From a virus, in IMG/VR virus record IMGVR_UViG_3300021185_003351, positions 32,001-96,000 of that record: a stretch of 64,000 bases of DNA. The stretch is one strand, 5' to 3'. The notes below the pieces were generated by a model. That model searched no databases. It was given only the letters and a program-made list of their open reading frames with translations, and was not told the DNA's origin. Within the stretch, counting starts at the first letter, position 1. The number at the start of each line of letters is the position of its first letter. Below, piece by piece: positions 51,000 to 57,604 of this stretch. Position numbers and translations under genes: made by a program.

Positions 51000-53462
51000 A
51001 TGGCCGAAAGAATAGTATCGCCAGGTGTATTTACAATAGAAAAAGATCAATCATTTTTACAACGAGGAGTTAGTGAAATTGGAGCATCAATAGTAGGATC
51101 AACATTAAAAGGTCCAGCTCAAGTTCCTACAAAGATAGGATCATTTTCTGAATTCCAAGAAATATTTGGAGGATATACCGATGAATCATATGTACCATTT
51201 ACAGTACAAGAATATTTAAAAAATGCAGGTACCATTACAGTAACAAGATTATTGTATGAAAATGGATATAATTTACAAAATGGCGTATTAGCTATTGTAG
51301 CTGAATCAGGATCTGTTTCAGAAGTGACTCATTTATTACATCCAACACAACCAGTATCAACTACAGGTGATTCAAATGTATTTGAAGAGTCATTATTTGA
51401 AAATTTAAATTCTGGATCTTTTAAACTAAAAGTTTCTGGAGCATTTGCGACGGATTCATCAATACCAGGATATTCGGCATATTTAACTACTGACTTTATT
51501 TCTGCATCATTAGATTCAACATCTAATAGTTATATCACAAAGATATTTGGAAATAATCCTAAATCAGTAAATTATCCAGTTTATGTGCAATACGAAAACA
51601 AAAATGCATTTTCATTATTTAATCAAAGTAGTGAAATATCAATGAGTTTAGCAATTGTAGATAAGTATCAATTTCTTCAAGATTTTCAAGCAGCATCTAC
51701 TCCGTATATAACATCACAACAAATAACAGGTGGGTCTTCTATAGACTTATTTAAATTTCATACATTATCTCATGGTAACGTAGAAAATTTTGATGTTAAA
51801 GTTGGAGTAAGAGATATTAAAGTTTCATCAGAAGTATCAGATCCAAATGGATATGGAACATTTACATTAGAAGTAAGAAGAGTAAATAATCAACATTTAC
51901 CTACTTCCCCTTTTGATTCTGATGACACAGACAAATCACCAGACATAGTAGAACAATTTACCAATCTTAATTTAGATCCAGATTCTCCTAATTATATAGT
52001 TAGAAGAATTGGCGATCAATTTAGAACTATTGATAGTGACGGTAAAATATATGATAATGGTGATTATCCAAACTTATCAAAATATATAAGAATCGAAGTA
52101 ACTGAAAATGTTAAAGCAAAAGCGATAGACGCATCTTTAATACCATTTGGTTTTAGAGCAACAAATTCTCCAATTCCAGATGTATCAGGATCTGCAGGTA
52201 ATTTAAACCTAGGTGCAGTATCATATATATCATCTCAAGTAATAGGAAGTTCATATAGTTCAAAAAATTATTTTGGATTTGATTATACAAATTTAAATAA
52301 CTTAAATTATTTAGCACCATTACCAACTTCAGGTTCAAATACAGGTTCAAATACTGATTTTTACTTAGGAAATGTATCACAAGCAGCTGAAGCTAATTTT
52401 CCAAGTATAGCTGGTGCCTATTCTGGATCCATAGGAACATCATTAGACGCCGGTAGGTTAGCAACAGAAATATCAATTAATACTAGAAAATTTATGGTAC
52501 CATTCCAAGGTGGATTTGATGGATCAAAACCTAATTTACCTAAAATGATTGGAACTAATATTAAATCTTCAAATACATTAGGATTTGATTGTAGCACTTC
52601 AACCTCAACTGGAACATTAGCATATAGAAAAGCATTTGCAGCACTATCAAATACCGATTTCTTTGATATGAACATGTTAATTACACCTGGATTAATAGAC
52701 AGATTACATTCAAGTGTAACAGCAGAAGCTAGACAATTAGCAGAAGATAGACAAGACACATTTTACATAATGGATGCAGGAGCTGTAACAGATTCAATTT
52801 CAACCGTTGTTAATCAAGTTAATTCAATTGATTCAAATTACACTGCAACATATTTCCCATGGGTGAGAATAGTTGATCCAGGAAAGAATAAGCCAATGTT
52901 TGTTCCACCATCTGTAGTAGTACCTGGAGCATTATCATTTAACGATACAGTAGCAGCACCATGGTATGCACCTGCAGGATTAAATAGAGGAAGTTTAACG
53001 TCTGTAATTAATACATATGAAAAATTGACTCAATCAAATAGAGATGAGTTATATGAATCTAGAGTTAATCCAATAGCAAATTTTCCAAATCAAGGAATTT
53101 GTATATGGGGACAAAAAACTCTTCAATCTAGACCATCTGCATTGGATAGAGTTAATGTTAGAAGACTATTGATAACTGTTAAGAAATTTATTGCTTCGTC
53201 AACTAAATTTTTAGTATTTGAACAAAATACAACCGCAACTAGAAATAGATTTTTAGCTATAGCAAATCCGTATTTAGAAAGTGTTAGATCACAACAAGGA
53301 CTTCATGCATTTAGAGTTGTAATGGATGCAAGTAATAATACACCAGATTTAATAGATCAAAATATATTATACGGACAAATATTTTTACAACCAACTAGAA
53401 CGGCAGAATTTATAGTATTAGACTTTAATATTCAACCAACTGGTGCTTCATTCCCAGAATAA
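51000..53462 (+). CDS. Contractile tail sheath protein (T4 gp18-like)
   Basis: SPGVFTIEKD, PWYAPAGLNRG, WGQKTL, LDRVNVRRL, FEQN and PTRTAEFI motifs. Confidence 0.96.
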   Translation: MAERIVSPGVFTIEKDQSFLQRGVSEIGASIVGSTLKGPAQVPTKIGSFSEFQEIFGGYTDESYVPFTVQEYLKNAGTITVTRLLYENGYNLQNGVLAIVAESGSVSEVTHLLHPTQPVSTTGDSNVFEESLFENLNSGSFKLKVSGAFATDSSIPGYSAYLTTDFISASLDSTSNSYITKIFGNNPKSVNYPVYVQYENKNAFSLFNQSSEISMSLAIVDKYQFLQDFQAASTPYITSQQITGGSSIDLFKFHTLSHGNVENFDVKVGVRDIKVSSEVSDPNGYGTFTLEVRRVNNQHLPTSPFDSDDTDKSPDIVEQFTNLNLDPDSPNYIVRRIGDQFRTIDSDGKIYDNGDYPNLSKYIRIEVTENVKAKAIDASLIPFGFRATNSPIPDVSGSAGNLNLGAVSYISSQVIGSSYSSKNYFGFDYTNLNNLNYLAPLPTSGSNTGSNTDFYLGNVSQAAEANFPSIAGAYSGSIGTSLDAGRLATEISINTRKFMVPFQGGFDGSKPNLPKMIGTNIKSSNTLGFDCSTSTSTGTLAYRKAFAALSNTDFFDMNMLITPGLIDRLHSSVTAEARQLAEDRQDTFYIMDAGAVTDSISTVVNQVNSIDSNYTATYFPWVRIVDPGKNKPMFVPPSVVVPGALSFNDTVAAPWYAPAGLNRGSLTSVINTYEKLTQSNRDELYESRVNPIANFPNQGICIWGQKTLQSRPSALDRVNVRRLLITVKKFIASSTKFLVFEQNTTATRNRFLAIANPYLESVRSQQGLHAFRVVMDASNNTPDLIDQNILYGQIFLQPTRTAEFIVLDFNIQPTGASFPE

Positions 53463-53505: not shown

Positions 53506-54015
53506 ATGGCATTAGAGCAAGAATTAGATGGAATTAATCAAAATGAACTATTTGATAGTGCATTTGATTGGGAACCTAAATATACCAATAGATTTATTAT
53601 GTATATAGGAGATATTCCTACTTATATTATAAAAGCTGCAGCTAGACCTTCTTTAACTAATGGTGAAGTTATTCTTGATCATATTAATGTTGAGCGAAAG
53701 CTAAAAGGTAAAACTAGATGGCAAGACATTTCGATCACATTATATGATCCAATTGTACCATCAGGAGCACAGTCGGTAATGGAGTGGGTAAGATTACATC
53801 ACGAATCTTTAACAGGTAGAGATGGATATAGTACTCAATACAAAAAAGATATTAGATTTAATTCACTTTCACCAACCGGAGAAATTATTGAAGAATGGTT
53901 GTTGAAAGGAGCATTCATTGCAGATTCAAACTTTGGATCAATGGATTGGTCGACAGAAGAATCAGTTCAAATTGAATTAACATTGAAATATGATTACGCT
54001 GTATTAGAATTTTAA
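53506..54015 (+). CDS. Tail tube protein (T4 gp19-like)
   Basis: NRFIM, W..ISITLYD, YKKD, W.LKGAF and LTLKYD motifs. Follows the sheath. Confidence 0.92.
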   Translation: MALEQELDGINQNELFDSAFDWEPKYTNRFIMYIGDIPTYIIKAAARPSLTNGEVILDHINVERKLKGKTRWQDISITLYDPIVPSGAQSVMEWVRLHHESLTGRDGYSTQYKKDIRFNSLSPTGEIIEEWLLKGAFIADSNFGSMDWSTEESVQIELTLKYDYAVLEF

Positions 54016-54125: not shown

Positions 54126-54698
54126 ATGAATCGTATATTTATTATATTTTTAACTTTATTAACTTGCAATATATTCTGTCAAGATACTATTTTTAGATTT
54201 GAAGAAGAGCCATTAACTGGAAAGATAGTATTTATTGATAATAACATTATATTATATAATAAAAATAATTTTATAAAAGATATACCAACAGAAGTTGTAT
54301 TTGGATATAAAAAAGACAACAAACTATCAATATTATATAAAGAAAATAAACAACCATTTTCCACAATACAAATGAATGATTATGTAACGGGTAGAACAAA
54401 AGGATATCAAGATCATACTCCAGGAATACCATTTGCAATAGGATTTTTTAGTTCTTATTTTTATACATATTACAATACTAGAGGTTTAACTAGAAATCCA
54501 AAATTTTCATCATTAGCATTTACTGCAGTACCATCAATTGTATTTACATATGTAAAACCTAAGGCTAATAAAAAATGGAGTTTAGAAAAAAGAACAGGTT
54601 ATCAATTATCTAGATCTGAAAAAAATCAAGTTTCATCATGGTGGGGTGCAGTATTAGGCACTGCTACTATATTTACTCTCTATTTTTCAAGTAACTAA
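54126..54698 (+). CDS. Signal-peptide membrane protein (accessory gene in the tail module)
   Basis: MNRIFIIFLTLLTCNIFC-Q signal peptide and 2-3 hydrophobic segments in the C-terminal half. Confidence 0.65.
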   Translation: MNRIFIIFLTLLTCNIFCQDTIFRFEEEPLTGKIVFIDNNIILYNKNNFIKDIPTEVVFGYKKDNKLSILYKENKQPFSTIQMNDYVTGRTKGYQDHTPGIPFAIGFFSSYFYTYYNTRGLTRNPKFSSLAFTAVPSIVFTYVKPKANKKWSLEKRTGYQLSRSEKNQVSSWWGAVLGTATIFTLYFSSN

Positions 54699-54729: not shown

Positions 54730-55485
54730 ATGACAAAATTAACAGATCGTTATTCAAATGAAAATCTAATAAACTTAGCAACTCAAAATTACGACAAAAC
54801 AAAAAAAAGTACTTTACCAACTGAAGTAGTAACATTAGCTTCAGGAGGAAAGGTATATTCAAAAACAAATCCATTAAGTTCCGGCAAAATTGAAATGCGT
54901 TATATGACCGCTTATGACGAAGATATACTAACAAATGCATCATATATAAAAGAAGGAATTGTTTTAGATAAGCTGTTAGAAGCACTTATAATATCGGATA
55001 TCAATATAAATGATATAGCAACTGTCGACAAAGATGGATTAATTATACATGCAAGAATAGTTAGTTACGGAAAAATATATCCAGTACTGGTAACAGATCC
55101 AAAAACTAATAATAATTTAAAAAGAGAAGTTGATTTATCAAAACTAAATGCGTTTGATTTTAAACTAGAGCCTGATGAAAACGGTGAATTTGATTATCAA
55201 ATTAATGAAGATTTCAAACTAAAATTTCAATATACAAAAAAAGAAACAACAGGTACAGTATCAGAAGTATTAACAAAAAGTATTACTCAAATTAATAAAT
55301 CTAGAAAAGTAGAAGATATAGAACATTTTATAAAATATGAATTTTTAGCAAAAGATGCTAAAGAATTTAGATTATATATCTCAGAAAATGCGCCAGGAAT
55401 AAATTATGAATATGAATTTGAAGGTGAAGATGGAGGCACCTTCATTTCAAGGTTTCAACCTGGAACAGACCTTTTTTGGTTTTAA
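54730..55485 (+). CDS. T4 gp26-like baseplate hub/tail assembly chaperone
   Basis: V.L.S.GK.Y, IEMRYMTAYDEDIL and ARIVSYG motifs. Lies between tube and tape measure. Confidence 0.75.
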   Translation: MTKLTDRYSNENLINLATQNYDKTKKSTLPTEVVTLASGGKVYSKTNPLSSGKIEMRYMTAYDEDILTNASYIKEGIVLDKLLEALIISDININDIATVDKDGLIIHARIVSYGKIYPVLVTDPKTNNNLKREVDLSKLNAFDFKLEPDENGEFDYQINEDFKLKFQYTKKETTGTVSEVLTKSITQINKSRKVEDIEHFIKYEFLAKDAKEFRLYISENAPGINYEYEFEGEDGGTFISRFQPGTDLFWF

Positions 55486-55702
55486 GCCAGAACATCGTGT
55501 TGATTTACATGATCAATTATTTAATATTTTATGGGCTGGTGAAGGCAGATGGACATGGAGTGATATATATTATATGCCATTATTTCTAAGAAAGTTTTAT
55601 ATAAAAAAGTTGAATTCTATACATGAAAAGAAAAACTCTGCAGAAAAACAAAGAAAAAAGAAGCCAACAGCAAAAGATAAGATCGCAAAACCTCCTATGT
55701 AA
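55472..55702 (+). CDS. gp51-like chaperone extension, probably reached by frameshift
   Basis: The +1 frame relative to the upstream gene reads FFGFKPEHR...WTWSDIYYMPLFLRKFYI, with slippery T-runs at the junction. Confidence 0.6.
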   Translation, partial: FFGFKPEHRVDLHDQLFNILWAGEGRWTWSDIYYMPLFLRKFYIKKLNSIHEKKNSAEKQRKKKPTAKDKIAKPPM

Positions 55703-55726
55703 ATATTTATATAAAAAGATATTTGC

Positions 55727-57604
55727 ATGAATATTCCGTATAATTACATACAATCGTTAAAACAACTTCCTAAACAGAGCGCACAAGTACCTCTTAACCC
55801 CGGCAGCGACAACCTAAATACTAAACTTGCTGACTTAGATGTTGGCGATATAGCACCCGGGTATGACGAGTTAAATAAGCTTATTGTAAAATTTCAAGAT
55901 AATATTTCCAAATCAAACAATTTGTTTGAAGCTCAAATTGATCAACTTCGTAAAAATCAAAAAGCTGTACTTTCATATACAAAATCACTTACTGCATTTG
56001 AACAAAGAAATGTAAGAATACAAAAAATATTTAAACTAAATACAGAAGAATCTGCTGTATTAGGGAAAGAAATTGATAAAATTGCAGTTCGATTTAATAG
56101 ATCTGGAGCAACTGTAAGAAAGTATACAAGTGATTTAAATAAATTAATACCTGGATTCCAAAACACAATCACTTCTGGGGGTAAAGCCGGCGATAGTTTG
56201 TTAAAAATACAAGATGCATTTCAACAACAATTAGGTTTATCTGGAGATTTAGCTAATTCATTTGCTTTATTCTCCGGAGGAAATGAAGAAGTATTAACAT
56301 CACAATTACAAATAGTTAAAGGTATAGAAGCTCAAACAAATGGACTTATAAATGCTAGAGATATAGTTGGTGATATATCCGGATTATCTGCAAACTTGCA
56401 ACTGCAATTTGGAAAGATACCTGGAAATTTAGAATTAGCTGTTTTAAAAGCTAGAACATTAGGTGTTTCATTTGCTGATATAGCAAAAACAGGAAATGAA
56501 TTATTAAATGTAGAGTCATCTATTAATAATGAATTAGAGTACCAATTGTTATCAGGAAAGCGATTAGTAGATCAAAATGGCAAAAGCTTAACACAACAAT
56601 TCAGAACAGCTGCAATTCAAGGAGATGCAAATGCACAAGCAGACGCATTAACCAAAATCATAGAAACTCAAGGATCTACTATAGAAAATAATGTATTTGC
56701 ACGACAACAGTTAGCTAAAACATTAGGAATGGAAGAAGGACAATTATCAAAAATTGTTCAACAACGAAAATTAGTATCTAAACTTGGAGCAGAAAGTTTA
56801 TTAGGATTACAAGGAGCTGATTTAGAAGAAGGCATAGAAAAATTTAAAAAAGGATTTAAAGGAGACATAAATGATTTAGATGATTTATTAAGCTCCTTTG
56901 ATAATAGATCAACTGACCAAATGCTTGTAGAAGTACTTGGAAAACTTGAAGCACAACTAGGAGCTGGTACTAATACAGCCGAAGTTCTAAAGCAACAAAA
57001 AAAAATATTAAAAGAAGCTAGAATTGTAACACCAGCAAGAACTGAAAAAGATGCACAAACTGGAGAAGAAATTAAAATTCCAGCTGTAGAAGGAGACATT
57101 TTAAGTTTTGTTAATTCTGGAAAAAAACTTATTGAGAAAATACAAAATGAAGTCGGCCCATCAATAACTGCTTATACCACAATCGGCCCTGTAATAGCAG
57201 ATATTCAAAGCAAAGTTCCACTACTTGGAAAAAGCCTTGCTCTAATAACAAACAGCATCATCACTAGTGCAAAAAAATTAGGAACCGGCACTTTAGAAAC
57301 AGATCCTGTAGCAGATGCAACGGCTGCAGAAACAACAGATTCAAACGATTCGATAATACGAGTAAATGATGCTATATTATTTAATCCAAACGACAAATTT
57401 AATATAGTAGCATCAACAAGTCCCGGAGCATTAGATCAAGCAACTGCAGATATAACGGGAGCAGGCAAAGGATCGTCATCAGGCCCTTCAGCACAAGAAA
57501 TAGGAGCAGCTGTTGCAAACGCTCTACAAGGAGTTAATTTATATGTATCACCAAACGAATTAGCAGCAGAAATGGCTTTTAATTCTTATAATATAAACGC
57601 TTAA
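55727..57604 (+). CDS. Tape measure-like protein
   Basis: 625-aa helical protein rich in A/L/Q/K/G, following the chaperone pair. Confidence 0.7.
   Translation: MNIPYNYIQSLKQLPKQSAQVPLNPGSDNLNTKLADLDVGDIAPGYDELNKLIVKFQDNISKSNNLFEAQIDQLRKNQKAVLSYTKSLTAFEQRNVRIQKIFKLNTEESAVLGKEIDKIAVRFNRSGATVRKYTSDLNKLIPGFQNTITSGGKAGDSLLKIQDAFQQQLGLSGDLANSFALFSGGNEEVLTSQLQIVKGIEAQTNGLINARDIVGDISGLSANLQLQFGKIPGNLELAVLKARTLGVSFADIAKTGNELLNVESSINNELEYQLLSGKRLVDQNGKSLTQQFRTAAIQGDANAQADALTKIIETQGSTIENNVFARQQLAKTLGMEEGQLSKIVQQRKLVSKLGAESLLGLQGADLEEGIEKFKKGFKGDINDLDDLLSSFDNRSTDQMLVEVLGKLEAQLGAGTNTAEVLKQQKKILKEARIVTPARTEKDAQTGEEIKIPAVEGDILSFVNSGKKLIEKIQNEVGPSITAYTTIGPVIADIQSKVPLLGKSLALITNSIITSAKKLGTGTLETDPVADATAAETTDSNDSIIRVNDAILFNPNDKFNIVASTSPGALDQATADITGAGKGSSSGPSAQEIGAAVANALQGVNLYVSPNELAAEMAFNSYNINA

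Follow-up and report, generated by a model that had tools for sequence, protein, structure and literature searches.

Tail assembly chaperones of the lambda G/GT type come in two forms, both of which bind the tape measure protein, whereas the extension of the long form binds the tube protein; neither form is found in the virion, and the ratio of the two is ~30:1. The lambda gpG/gpGT pair was reportedly described by Levin in 1993, and the frameshift is said to be conserved in the tail assembly chaperone genes of long-tailed phages, a generalization credited to Xu, Hendrix and Duda in 2004. A review describes G-T frameshifting as conserved in long-tailed phages “except T4” (Atkins et al., PMC5009743). 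In T4, gp26 (208 amino acids, aa) and gp51 (249 aa) are hub assembly chaperones (Leiman et al. 2010, PMC3004832); gp51 is essential, its function is described as unknown, and it is not present in the phage particle (PMC3004832). We found no published description in the literature of a frameshift in gp26/gp51 homologues. Here we analyze a stretch of 64,000 nucleotides (nt), hereafter the window, which corresponds to bases 32001-96000 of the IMG/VR virus record IMGVR_UViG_3300021185_003351 (172,973 bp, rated 100% complete), from an uncultured ~173-kb marine T4-like phage. It contains a single gp26/gp51-family gene starting at position 54730, and the end of this gene overlaps an open reading frame (ORF) in the +1 frame that is probably reached by a ribosomal slip.

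A gp26/gp51-family gene overlapped by an open +1 frame

The 54730 gene (54730-55485; like all features given here, on the plus strand) is an ORF of 251 codons whose product belongs to the gp26/gp51 family of hub or tail assembly chaperones. It matches Pfam PF12322 (T4_baseplate) over residues 47-200 with 43.9 bits, for a cut-off of 24.5, as well as phrog_150 (baseplate hub) at 3.7e-13. T4 gp26 and gp51 (T4 locus L084, 5803-7229) each match PF12322 from end to end and are therefore paralogues; gp51 homologues bear the precomputed Pfam family PF28602 besides. In the 172,973-bp record, the 54730 gene is the only PF12322 or self-similar gene, and this phage does not have the T4 layout, in which the short and long forms are two paralogous genes.

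The zero frame of the 54730 gene terminates as ..GTDLFWF, its last codons being GAC CTT TTT TGG TTT TAA (55468-55485), with a run of six T (T6) at 55472-55477. From 55469, the +1 frame reads ACC TTT TTT GGT TTT AAG (peptide ..TFFGFKPEHR..) and stays open over 77 codons, up to TAA 55700-55702; the first Met past the junction is that of an MPLF motif. The whole +1 ORF overlapping the 54730 gene is open from 55406 to 55702. An earlier note, made from the letters of the window, had described the end of the upstream gene, the T6 run and a +1 frame continuing without Met up to MPLF; it read these features exactly. The part of the +1 frame lying beyond the proposed slip (55478-55702, 74 codons and a stop) was delimited from the translation of the fused product (P0368) and from the peptide family it belongs to. 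It contains the conserved motifs LHDxxF, G.G.(W/F)(T/S) and YxMPxxLRxFYIKKL, followed by a Lys-rich tail.

With a probability that we put at about 0.72, the 54730 gene encodes a gp26/gp51-family chaperone decoded in two ways, a +1 slip on UUU 55474-55476 yielding a long form of 323 aa. The proposed shift site is CUU UUU UGG (55471-55479), and TTTTTTGG is invariant in 78 close loci. Most ribosomes would stop at UAA 55483-55485, giving the short form of 251 aa. In a minority of them, the peptidyl-tRNA-Phe positioned on UUU 55474-55476, with UGG in the A site, would re-pair with UUU 55475-55477; the next codon would then be GGU 55478-55480, and translation would go on to 55702. At the predicted junction, ..TDLF would be joined directly to GFKPEHR.., within the predicted peptide ..GTDLFGFKPEHR, and trypsin would release FQPGTDLFGFKPEHR from a product of a +1 shift in the T-run. 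The predicted sizes of the long and short forms are ~37 kDa and ~29 kDa, respectively. Both forms may act on the neighbouring tape measure and hub in the way that G and GT do in lambda. Three elements of this reading are inferred: the ribosomal nature of the slip, its low efficiency and the G/GT-like action of the two forms.

Conservation of the junction and natural in-frame fusions

The junction was compared in 82 first relatives (3 cultured or assembled phages and 79 usable IMG/VR relatives) and in 80 additional loci from a metagenome scan seeded with in-frame forms. When the phage collection was searched at the DNA level with the 4 kb surrounding the site, no match was obtained, and a protein search of the same collection returned six records only. 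The two-ORF pair was found in the same +1 relation in Microcystis phage Mel-JY01, in Flavobacterium phage Immuto and in a 484-kb uncultured phage (28-34% identity); the PF12322 profile has no match in the Immuto and Mel-JY01 records. The +1 relation is kept in 82/82 first relatives. Over 165 classifiable loci, the downstream frame is +1 in 140, in-frame in 24 and -1 in one, and both the frame relation and the slip motif are retained down to ~28% protein identity.

All 119 distinct +1 junctions, including that of the window (UUU UGG), carry an in-frame UUU followed by U or C (UUU_Y). Hence, alignment of the junction in related phages, the check proposed in the earlier note, recovers a slip sequence conserved in the same frame relation. 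The most frequent junction is TTT TTT TGG (46/119), followed by CTT TTT TGG, the class of the window (33/119), and TTT TTT TAC (21/119). The others are TTC TTT TGG (8/119), ATT TTT TGG (4/119), TTT CTA TGG (4/119), TTT CTA TTC (2/119) and TTT CTT TGG (a single junction of the 119). Only UUU_Y, on which tRNA-Phe can re-pair one base forward, is common to these eight classes. The A-site codon at the conserved slip site is UGG, UAC, CUA or CUU and never a stop; the zero-frame stop lies 2-6 codons past the slip site. By itself, the motif is unremarkable, with 14 occurrences of TTTTTTGG in the window for 6.9 expected, and it is because of its conservation across relatives, not of its count, that the junction exceeds chance.

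Sites of the UUU_Y type are reportedly prone to +1 shifting, an observation attributed to Schwartz and Curran in 1997. In bacteria, UUU_Ynn is described as notably +1-prone, a stop codon being unnecessary (review PMC5009743). We found no shift stimulator at the junction: there is no Shine-Dalgarno (SD) sequence within 10 nt of the conserved slip site, the prfB-type SD located 3 nt upstream of the slip codon is absent, no conserved downstream structure was detected, and Rfam gave no match for 55200-55900. Such an unassisted UUU_Y site would be compatible with a low efficiency comparable to that of lambda G-T.

The downstream domain also exists as a natural continuation of the PF12322 protein. 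An exhaustive search with the 77-aa peptide gave 208 representatives (E<=1e-3), nearly all of which are short stand-alone calls; a few, however, are ~300-aa proteins in which PF12322 continues directly into the downstream domain. The DNA at the junction of these in-frame fusions reads for instance GAT ATA TTT GGC or GAC ATT TTT GGA, and its codons vary over 22 distinct sequences; the in-frame fusions are therefore not homopolymer errors. When the +1 product of the window (P0368, 323 aa) is compared with the in-frame proteins P0271 (2e-35) and P0260 (2e-29), each match is a single high-scoring segment pair without any gap at the junction. The sequence ..SRFQPGTDLFGFKPEHRVDLHDQLF of the window faces ..SKIDIDTDIFGFSPISKKLIHDEIF of the in-frame homologue, TDLFGFKPE thus corresponding to TDIFGFSPI. 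The residues preceding the junction in the in-frame homologues agree with the zero frame (T-D-L/I-F) and not with the +1 frame. In IMG/VR, no relatives of P0271 were found. A word-based search did not turn up any longer protein with the extension. A scan of the fused product showed that the PF12322/PHROG match does not extend into the extension.

According to a tree built on the N-terminal domain, in-frame forms make up one well-supported clade and the +1 forms occupy the other side. The in-frame clade (L088-L110 and L114, for example L100:4989-5906) groups 22 distinct sequences of ~300-315 aa from freshwater and marine samples, and its members show no further PF12322-like gene within 5 kb. 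The single -1 locus, L111 (1340-1625), reaches the same downstream domain through GTA AGT TTT TTC TGG (T_TTT_TTC). It is nested among the +1 forms, so that the lineage has undergone a reversal of shift direction.

Overall, sequence comparison establishes the frame relation, the UUU_Y site, the existence of relatives devoid of a start codon in the +1 frame (see below) and the colinearity with natural fusions. The proposal of the earlier note that a programmed frameshift joins the two ORFs is supported on these four grounds.

Alternative readings of the junction

The earlier note had pointed to a second slip candidate besides the T-run, the shifty stop UUU UAA (55480-55485) seen in the window. 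As in prfB, tRNA-Phe would re-pair from UUU 55480-82 to UUU 55481-83 during slow termination, giving ..TDLFWFKPEHR... In favour of this candidate, the re-pairing would be perfect and the A site holds a stop codon. The product would be as long as that of the T-run slip, differing from it at one position only, by W in place of G. However, the codon preceding the stop varies in close relatives (TTT, GTT, ATT, TCT, TTA, CTT or CCT), and most of these codons cannot re-pair. Moreover, in other clades the stop is displaced 3-6 codons beyond the run. The Gly that this product would lose has a conservation of at least 90% in the family, and most in-frame fusions have it. Of the two candidates, the T-run is thus the conserved one, and a +1 shift at the stop codon is improbable.

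A slightly less probable reading involves no recoding. The +1 ORF would be a separate overlapping gene starting at ATG 55406, 55412 or 55430 (at TTG -23 in most relatives) and encoding a free protein of ~90-98 aa. The three ATG codons (55406-55432) do lie in the +1 frame inside the upstream gene, as the earlier note had reported when raising this alternative. In addition, 49 of 66 close relatives have an ATG at -71 and most have a TTG at -23, and the annotators of Mel-JY01 chose a TTG start. On the other hand, ATG, GTG and TTG are all absent from the interval between the preceding +1 stop and the site in 26 of the 119 distinct relatives, where the +1 frame is open for just 2-8 codons up to the end of the slip codon. 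All 119 +1 ORFs match the hidden Markov model (HMM) of the downstream domain, these 26 included. The candidate starts move or vanish between clades and derive from conserved zero-frame codons (Y-E, E-D-G); in many relatives, ATGs 55406, 55412 and 55430 are missing or separated from the junction by +1-frame stops. Conservation begins at FFG in an alignment of 59 representatives of the downstream family, and the residues N-terminal of FFG vary in length and sequence, as would follow from an arbitrary choice of start by gene callers. Finally, an independent start leaves unexplained the universal +1 relation, the invariant UUU_Y and the exact colinearity with the in-frame fusions. In the public annotation of Mel-JY01 (L001 4776-5012), the downstream ORF is given its TTG start inside the overlap, and in that of Immuto (L002 4848-4958) it is shortened to a 36-aa gene that begins at an internal Met; both annotations omit the conserved N-terminal part of the downstream domain.

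Two points nevertheless weigh against a +1 slip in the window. First, an AGGA (55395-55398) is located 7 nt upstream of ATG 55406, and a similar motif precedes 19 of the 44 genes of the window. While in the family the second ORF would be reached only by a shift, as the 26 start-less relatives indicate, ATG 55406 is present here, and translation could start at this codon in the window and its own clade. The independent start considered in the earlier note is hence dismissed for 26/119 relatives, but not for the window itself. Second, the slip hexamer of the window, UUU UGG, is the same as that proposed as the shift site in Yersinia YopN-TyeA, and the YopN-TyeA hybrid was not abolished by mutating UUU-UGG (PMC3789692). 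This precedent is weak, and the window site, in comparison, draws its support from conservation.

In the window and 64 close relatives, the +1-frame codon at -23 from the stop (55460-55462 in the window) always encodes Leu (TTG, CTG or TTA), whereas the zero-frame residues at this position change radically (I to P, G to N or S); a local stem was tested and shows no covariation. This constant Leu codon led us to consider a shift further upstream, at an invariant TTT_C located 30 nt before the stop. This candidate was ruled out by the wider relatives, which have +1-frame stops 1-3 codons before the T-run, and by the in-frame homologues, which match the zero-frame T-D-(L/I)-F.

Transcriptional slippage, in which RNA polymerase would drop one U or add two in the T6 run, would give a product identical to that of the ribosomal +1 shift, and runs of T6-T7 do occur in most junction classes. 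Still, the +1 relation is kept without a usable run in TTC TTT TGG (T4 run) and in TTT CTA TGG, TTT CTA TTC and TTT CTT TGG (T3 run). T6 is also shorter than the runs usual for this process, which we consider very unlikely here. Least likely of all is a -2 slip of the ribosome along the U-run, of the kind proposed for Mu and kept by the earlier note in its “+1/-2” wording, of which only the +1 part stands. In the window, UUU 55474-76 can re-pair with UUU 55472-74, but re-pairing is impossible in the TTC TTT TGG and TTT CTA classes. The product, ..TDLFFGFKPE.., would moreover carry an additional Phe and exceed by one residue the in-frame homologues, whose alignment to the +1 product is gap-free.

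Surrounding features, predicted structure and related systems

Upstream of the +1 slip site, inside the short-form gene, pairing and covariation indicate a conserved RNA hairpin, UGAAGGUG-N10-CACCUUCA (55419-55444). Across the alignment, 93% of cells are paired, with one compensatory change from UA to CG; this level of pairing is attained by 2 of 500 shuffles, and the fold in the window has a z of -2.8. The loop contains AUG 55430 and GGAGG. The hairpin ends 29 nt before the slip codon, a distance too great for it to influence a ribosome positioned there. In the zero frame, synonymous variation is lower in the last 20 codons than further upstream, in part because of the hairpin, where the third positions of GGT, GGC and ACC are nearly fixed. 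A hairpin with the U-run in its loop (55460-55490) was dropped, since it shows no covariation and is reached by 215 of 500 shuffles.

The gene order is that of a contractile-tail module: sheath, tube, a small membrane-like ORF, the 54730 gene, the +1 ORF and a 625-aa gene. The tail sheath gene (51000-53462) matches phrog_23 (tail sheath, 3.2e-65) and the tail tube gene (53506-54015) matches phrog_4542 (tail tube protein, 5.1e-24). The 625-aa gene (55727-57604) is a candidate tape measure protein, assigned from its position and size. It has no Pfam or PHROG match of its own, and its homologue in Immuto is annotated as a tail tape measure protein. Both overlapping ORFs therefore sit between the tube gene and the gene in tape measure position, as in the lambda G/GT arrangement, and a tube gene is found at most 2.5 kb upstream in 115 of the 140 +1 loci.

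Between the tube and chaperone genes, the window has an inserted 190-aa ORF (54126-54698) with hydrophobic stretches at its N- and C-terminus and no Pfam or PHROG match. The corresponding gap is empty of genes in Immuto and Mel-JY01 and holds other ORFs in two further relatives (L085, L086). A ATATTTATATAAAA-like motif resembling T4 late promoters recurs just 5' of gene starts (e.g. 7711, 25335, 47567 and 53506), with one copy at 55704-55726, in the gap that separates the +1 ORF from the 625-aa gene. No tRNA genes were found in the window.

The AlphaFold model of the in-frame homologue P0185 has a predicted local distance difference test (pLDDT) of 95 and a predicted template modelling score (pTM) of 0.88. 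Compared with BFVD, it gives 60 matches with E<=1e-3, and those that are named are baseplate hub subunits, assembly proteins or chaperones; a Foldseek comparison of the same model with the PDB gave no match. Its N-terminal domain shows a weak likeness to the solved tail-assembly-chaperone folds of HK97 (2OB9), YqbN (3KLU) and Rbstp2171 (3FGX), with modest scores that come from one model. In a PDB-wide search with a gp51 model, the best 50 matches listed are occupied by the C-terminal helices and include no chaperone fold. As far as these models can be trusted, the N-terminal domain likely has a gpG-like chaperone fold.

The gp26-like/gp51-like pair named in the earlier note holds for the upstream gene, which is a PF12322 member. 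For the downstream part, the likeness to gp51 comes from structure models. In a MAFFT alignment, the end of gp26 aligns at the zero-frame stop and gp51 continues alongside the extension. In the model of a gp51 homologue (pLDDT 91), the last beta-hairpin is followed by four helices, in the same order as in P0185, and an M-(I)-P motif is found at the start of the last helix in both models. The P0185 and gp51 extensions also match the same helix-loop-helix chains. Profile and sequence comparisons gave no significant result: the fusion had no significant BLASTP match to T4 gp26 or gp51; hhalign of the downstream-domain profile gave E-values of 0.75 against T4 gp51 and of 0.036, to another region, against a 25-member gp51 alignment; and hmmsearch with the downstream domain against 96 gp51 and gp26 sequences had a best E-value of 0.098. 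Most of the leading hmmsearch matches, none of them significant, map to gp51 residues ~190-255. A relationship between the two extensions is hence a lead, not a result, suggested by the topology of helices that form a common helix-loop-helix motif.

The kind of system proposed here is already known; what is new is the +1 shift, the UUU_Y site and the PF12322 family. As in lambda gpG/gpGT, the two overlapping ORFs precede the tape measure gene, and a shift near the end of the first would give a short form and a C-terminally extended one. In contrast to lambda, the shift would be +1 on UUU_U instead of -1 on an X_XXY_YYZ heptamer, and the PF12322 protein, with 251 aa and extra domains, is much larger than gpG. 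As in E. coli prfB (RF2), the P-site tRNA would re-pair in +1 on a U-rich codon, and CUU_U also occurs one codon earlier in the window. Unlike in prfB, the A site holds no stop at the conserved position, an SD 3 nt upstream is lacking, and the autoregulatory logic is absent. The archaeal myovirus HSTV-2 very likely uses a +1 frameshift in its G-T counterpart (PMC5009743). It shares with the present phage a +1 rather than -1 shift in the tail chaperone gene of a contractile-tailed virus, but its protein family and the domain of its host are unrelated.

Compared with T4, the 54730 gene belongs to the same Pfam family as gp26 and gp51; gp26 ends where the zero-frame stop of the window lies and gp51 continues with helices in the same order. 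In place of the single gene of this phage, T4 has separate, divergently transcribed gp26 and gp51 genes and no frameshift, and the surrounding gene order differs. Taken together, these comparisons lead us to favour, by a narrow balance, the view that the gp26/gp51 family consists of true tail assembly chaperones with a gpG-like N-domain. T4-like phages would obtain the short/long pair interchangeably, by +1 on UUU_Y (this phage and most marine and freshwater relatives), by -1 on UUUUUUC (L111), by in-frame fusion or by two paralogous genes (T4). A conserved frameshift in the only gp26/gp51 homologue of many T4-related phages, directly preceding the tape measure gene, would also give gp26 and gp51 a testable role, that of a short/long chaperone pair. 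With one and the same junction crossed by a +1 shift, a -1 shift or no shift at all depending on the member, the family forms a natural series suited to studying the evolution of recoding sites. The long form escapes gene callers in hundreds of phages from metagenomes as well as in two cultured ones, Immuto and Mel-JY01, the downstream ORF being left unannotated, truncated or given a doubtful TTG start. If this view of the family is true, T4 would be a resolved version of the G/GT rule instead of its exception, and the direction of the shift could flip within one gene lineage.
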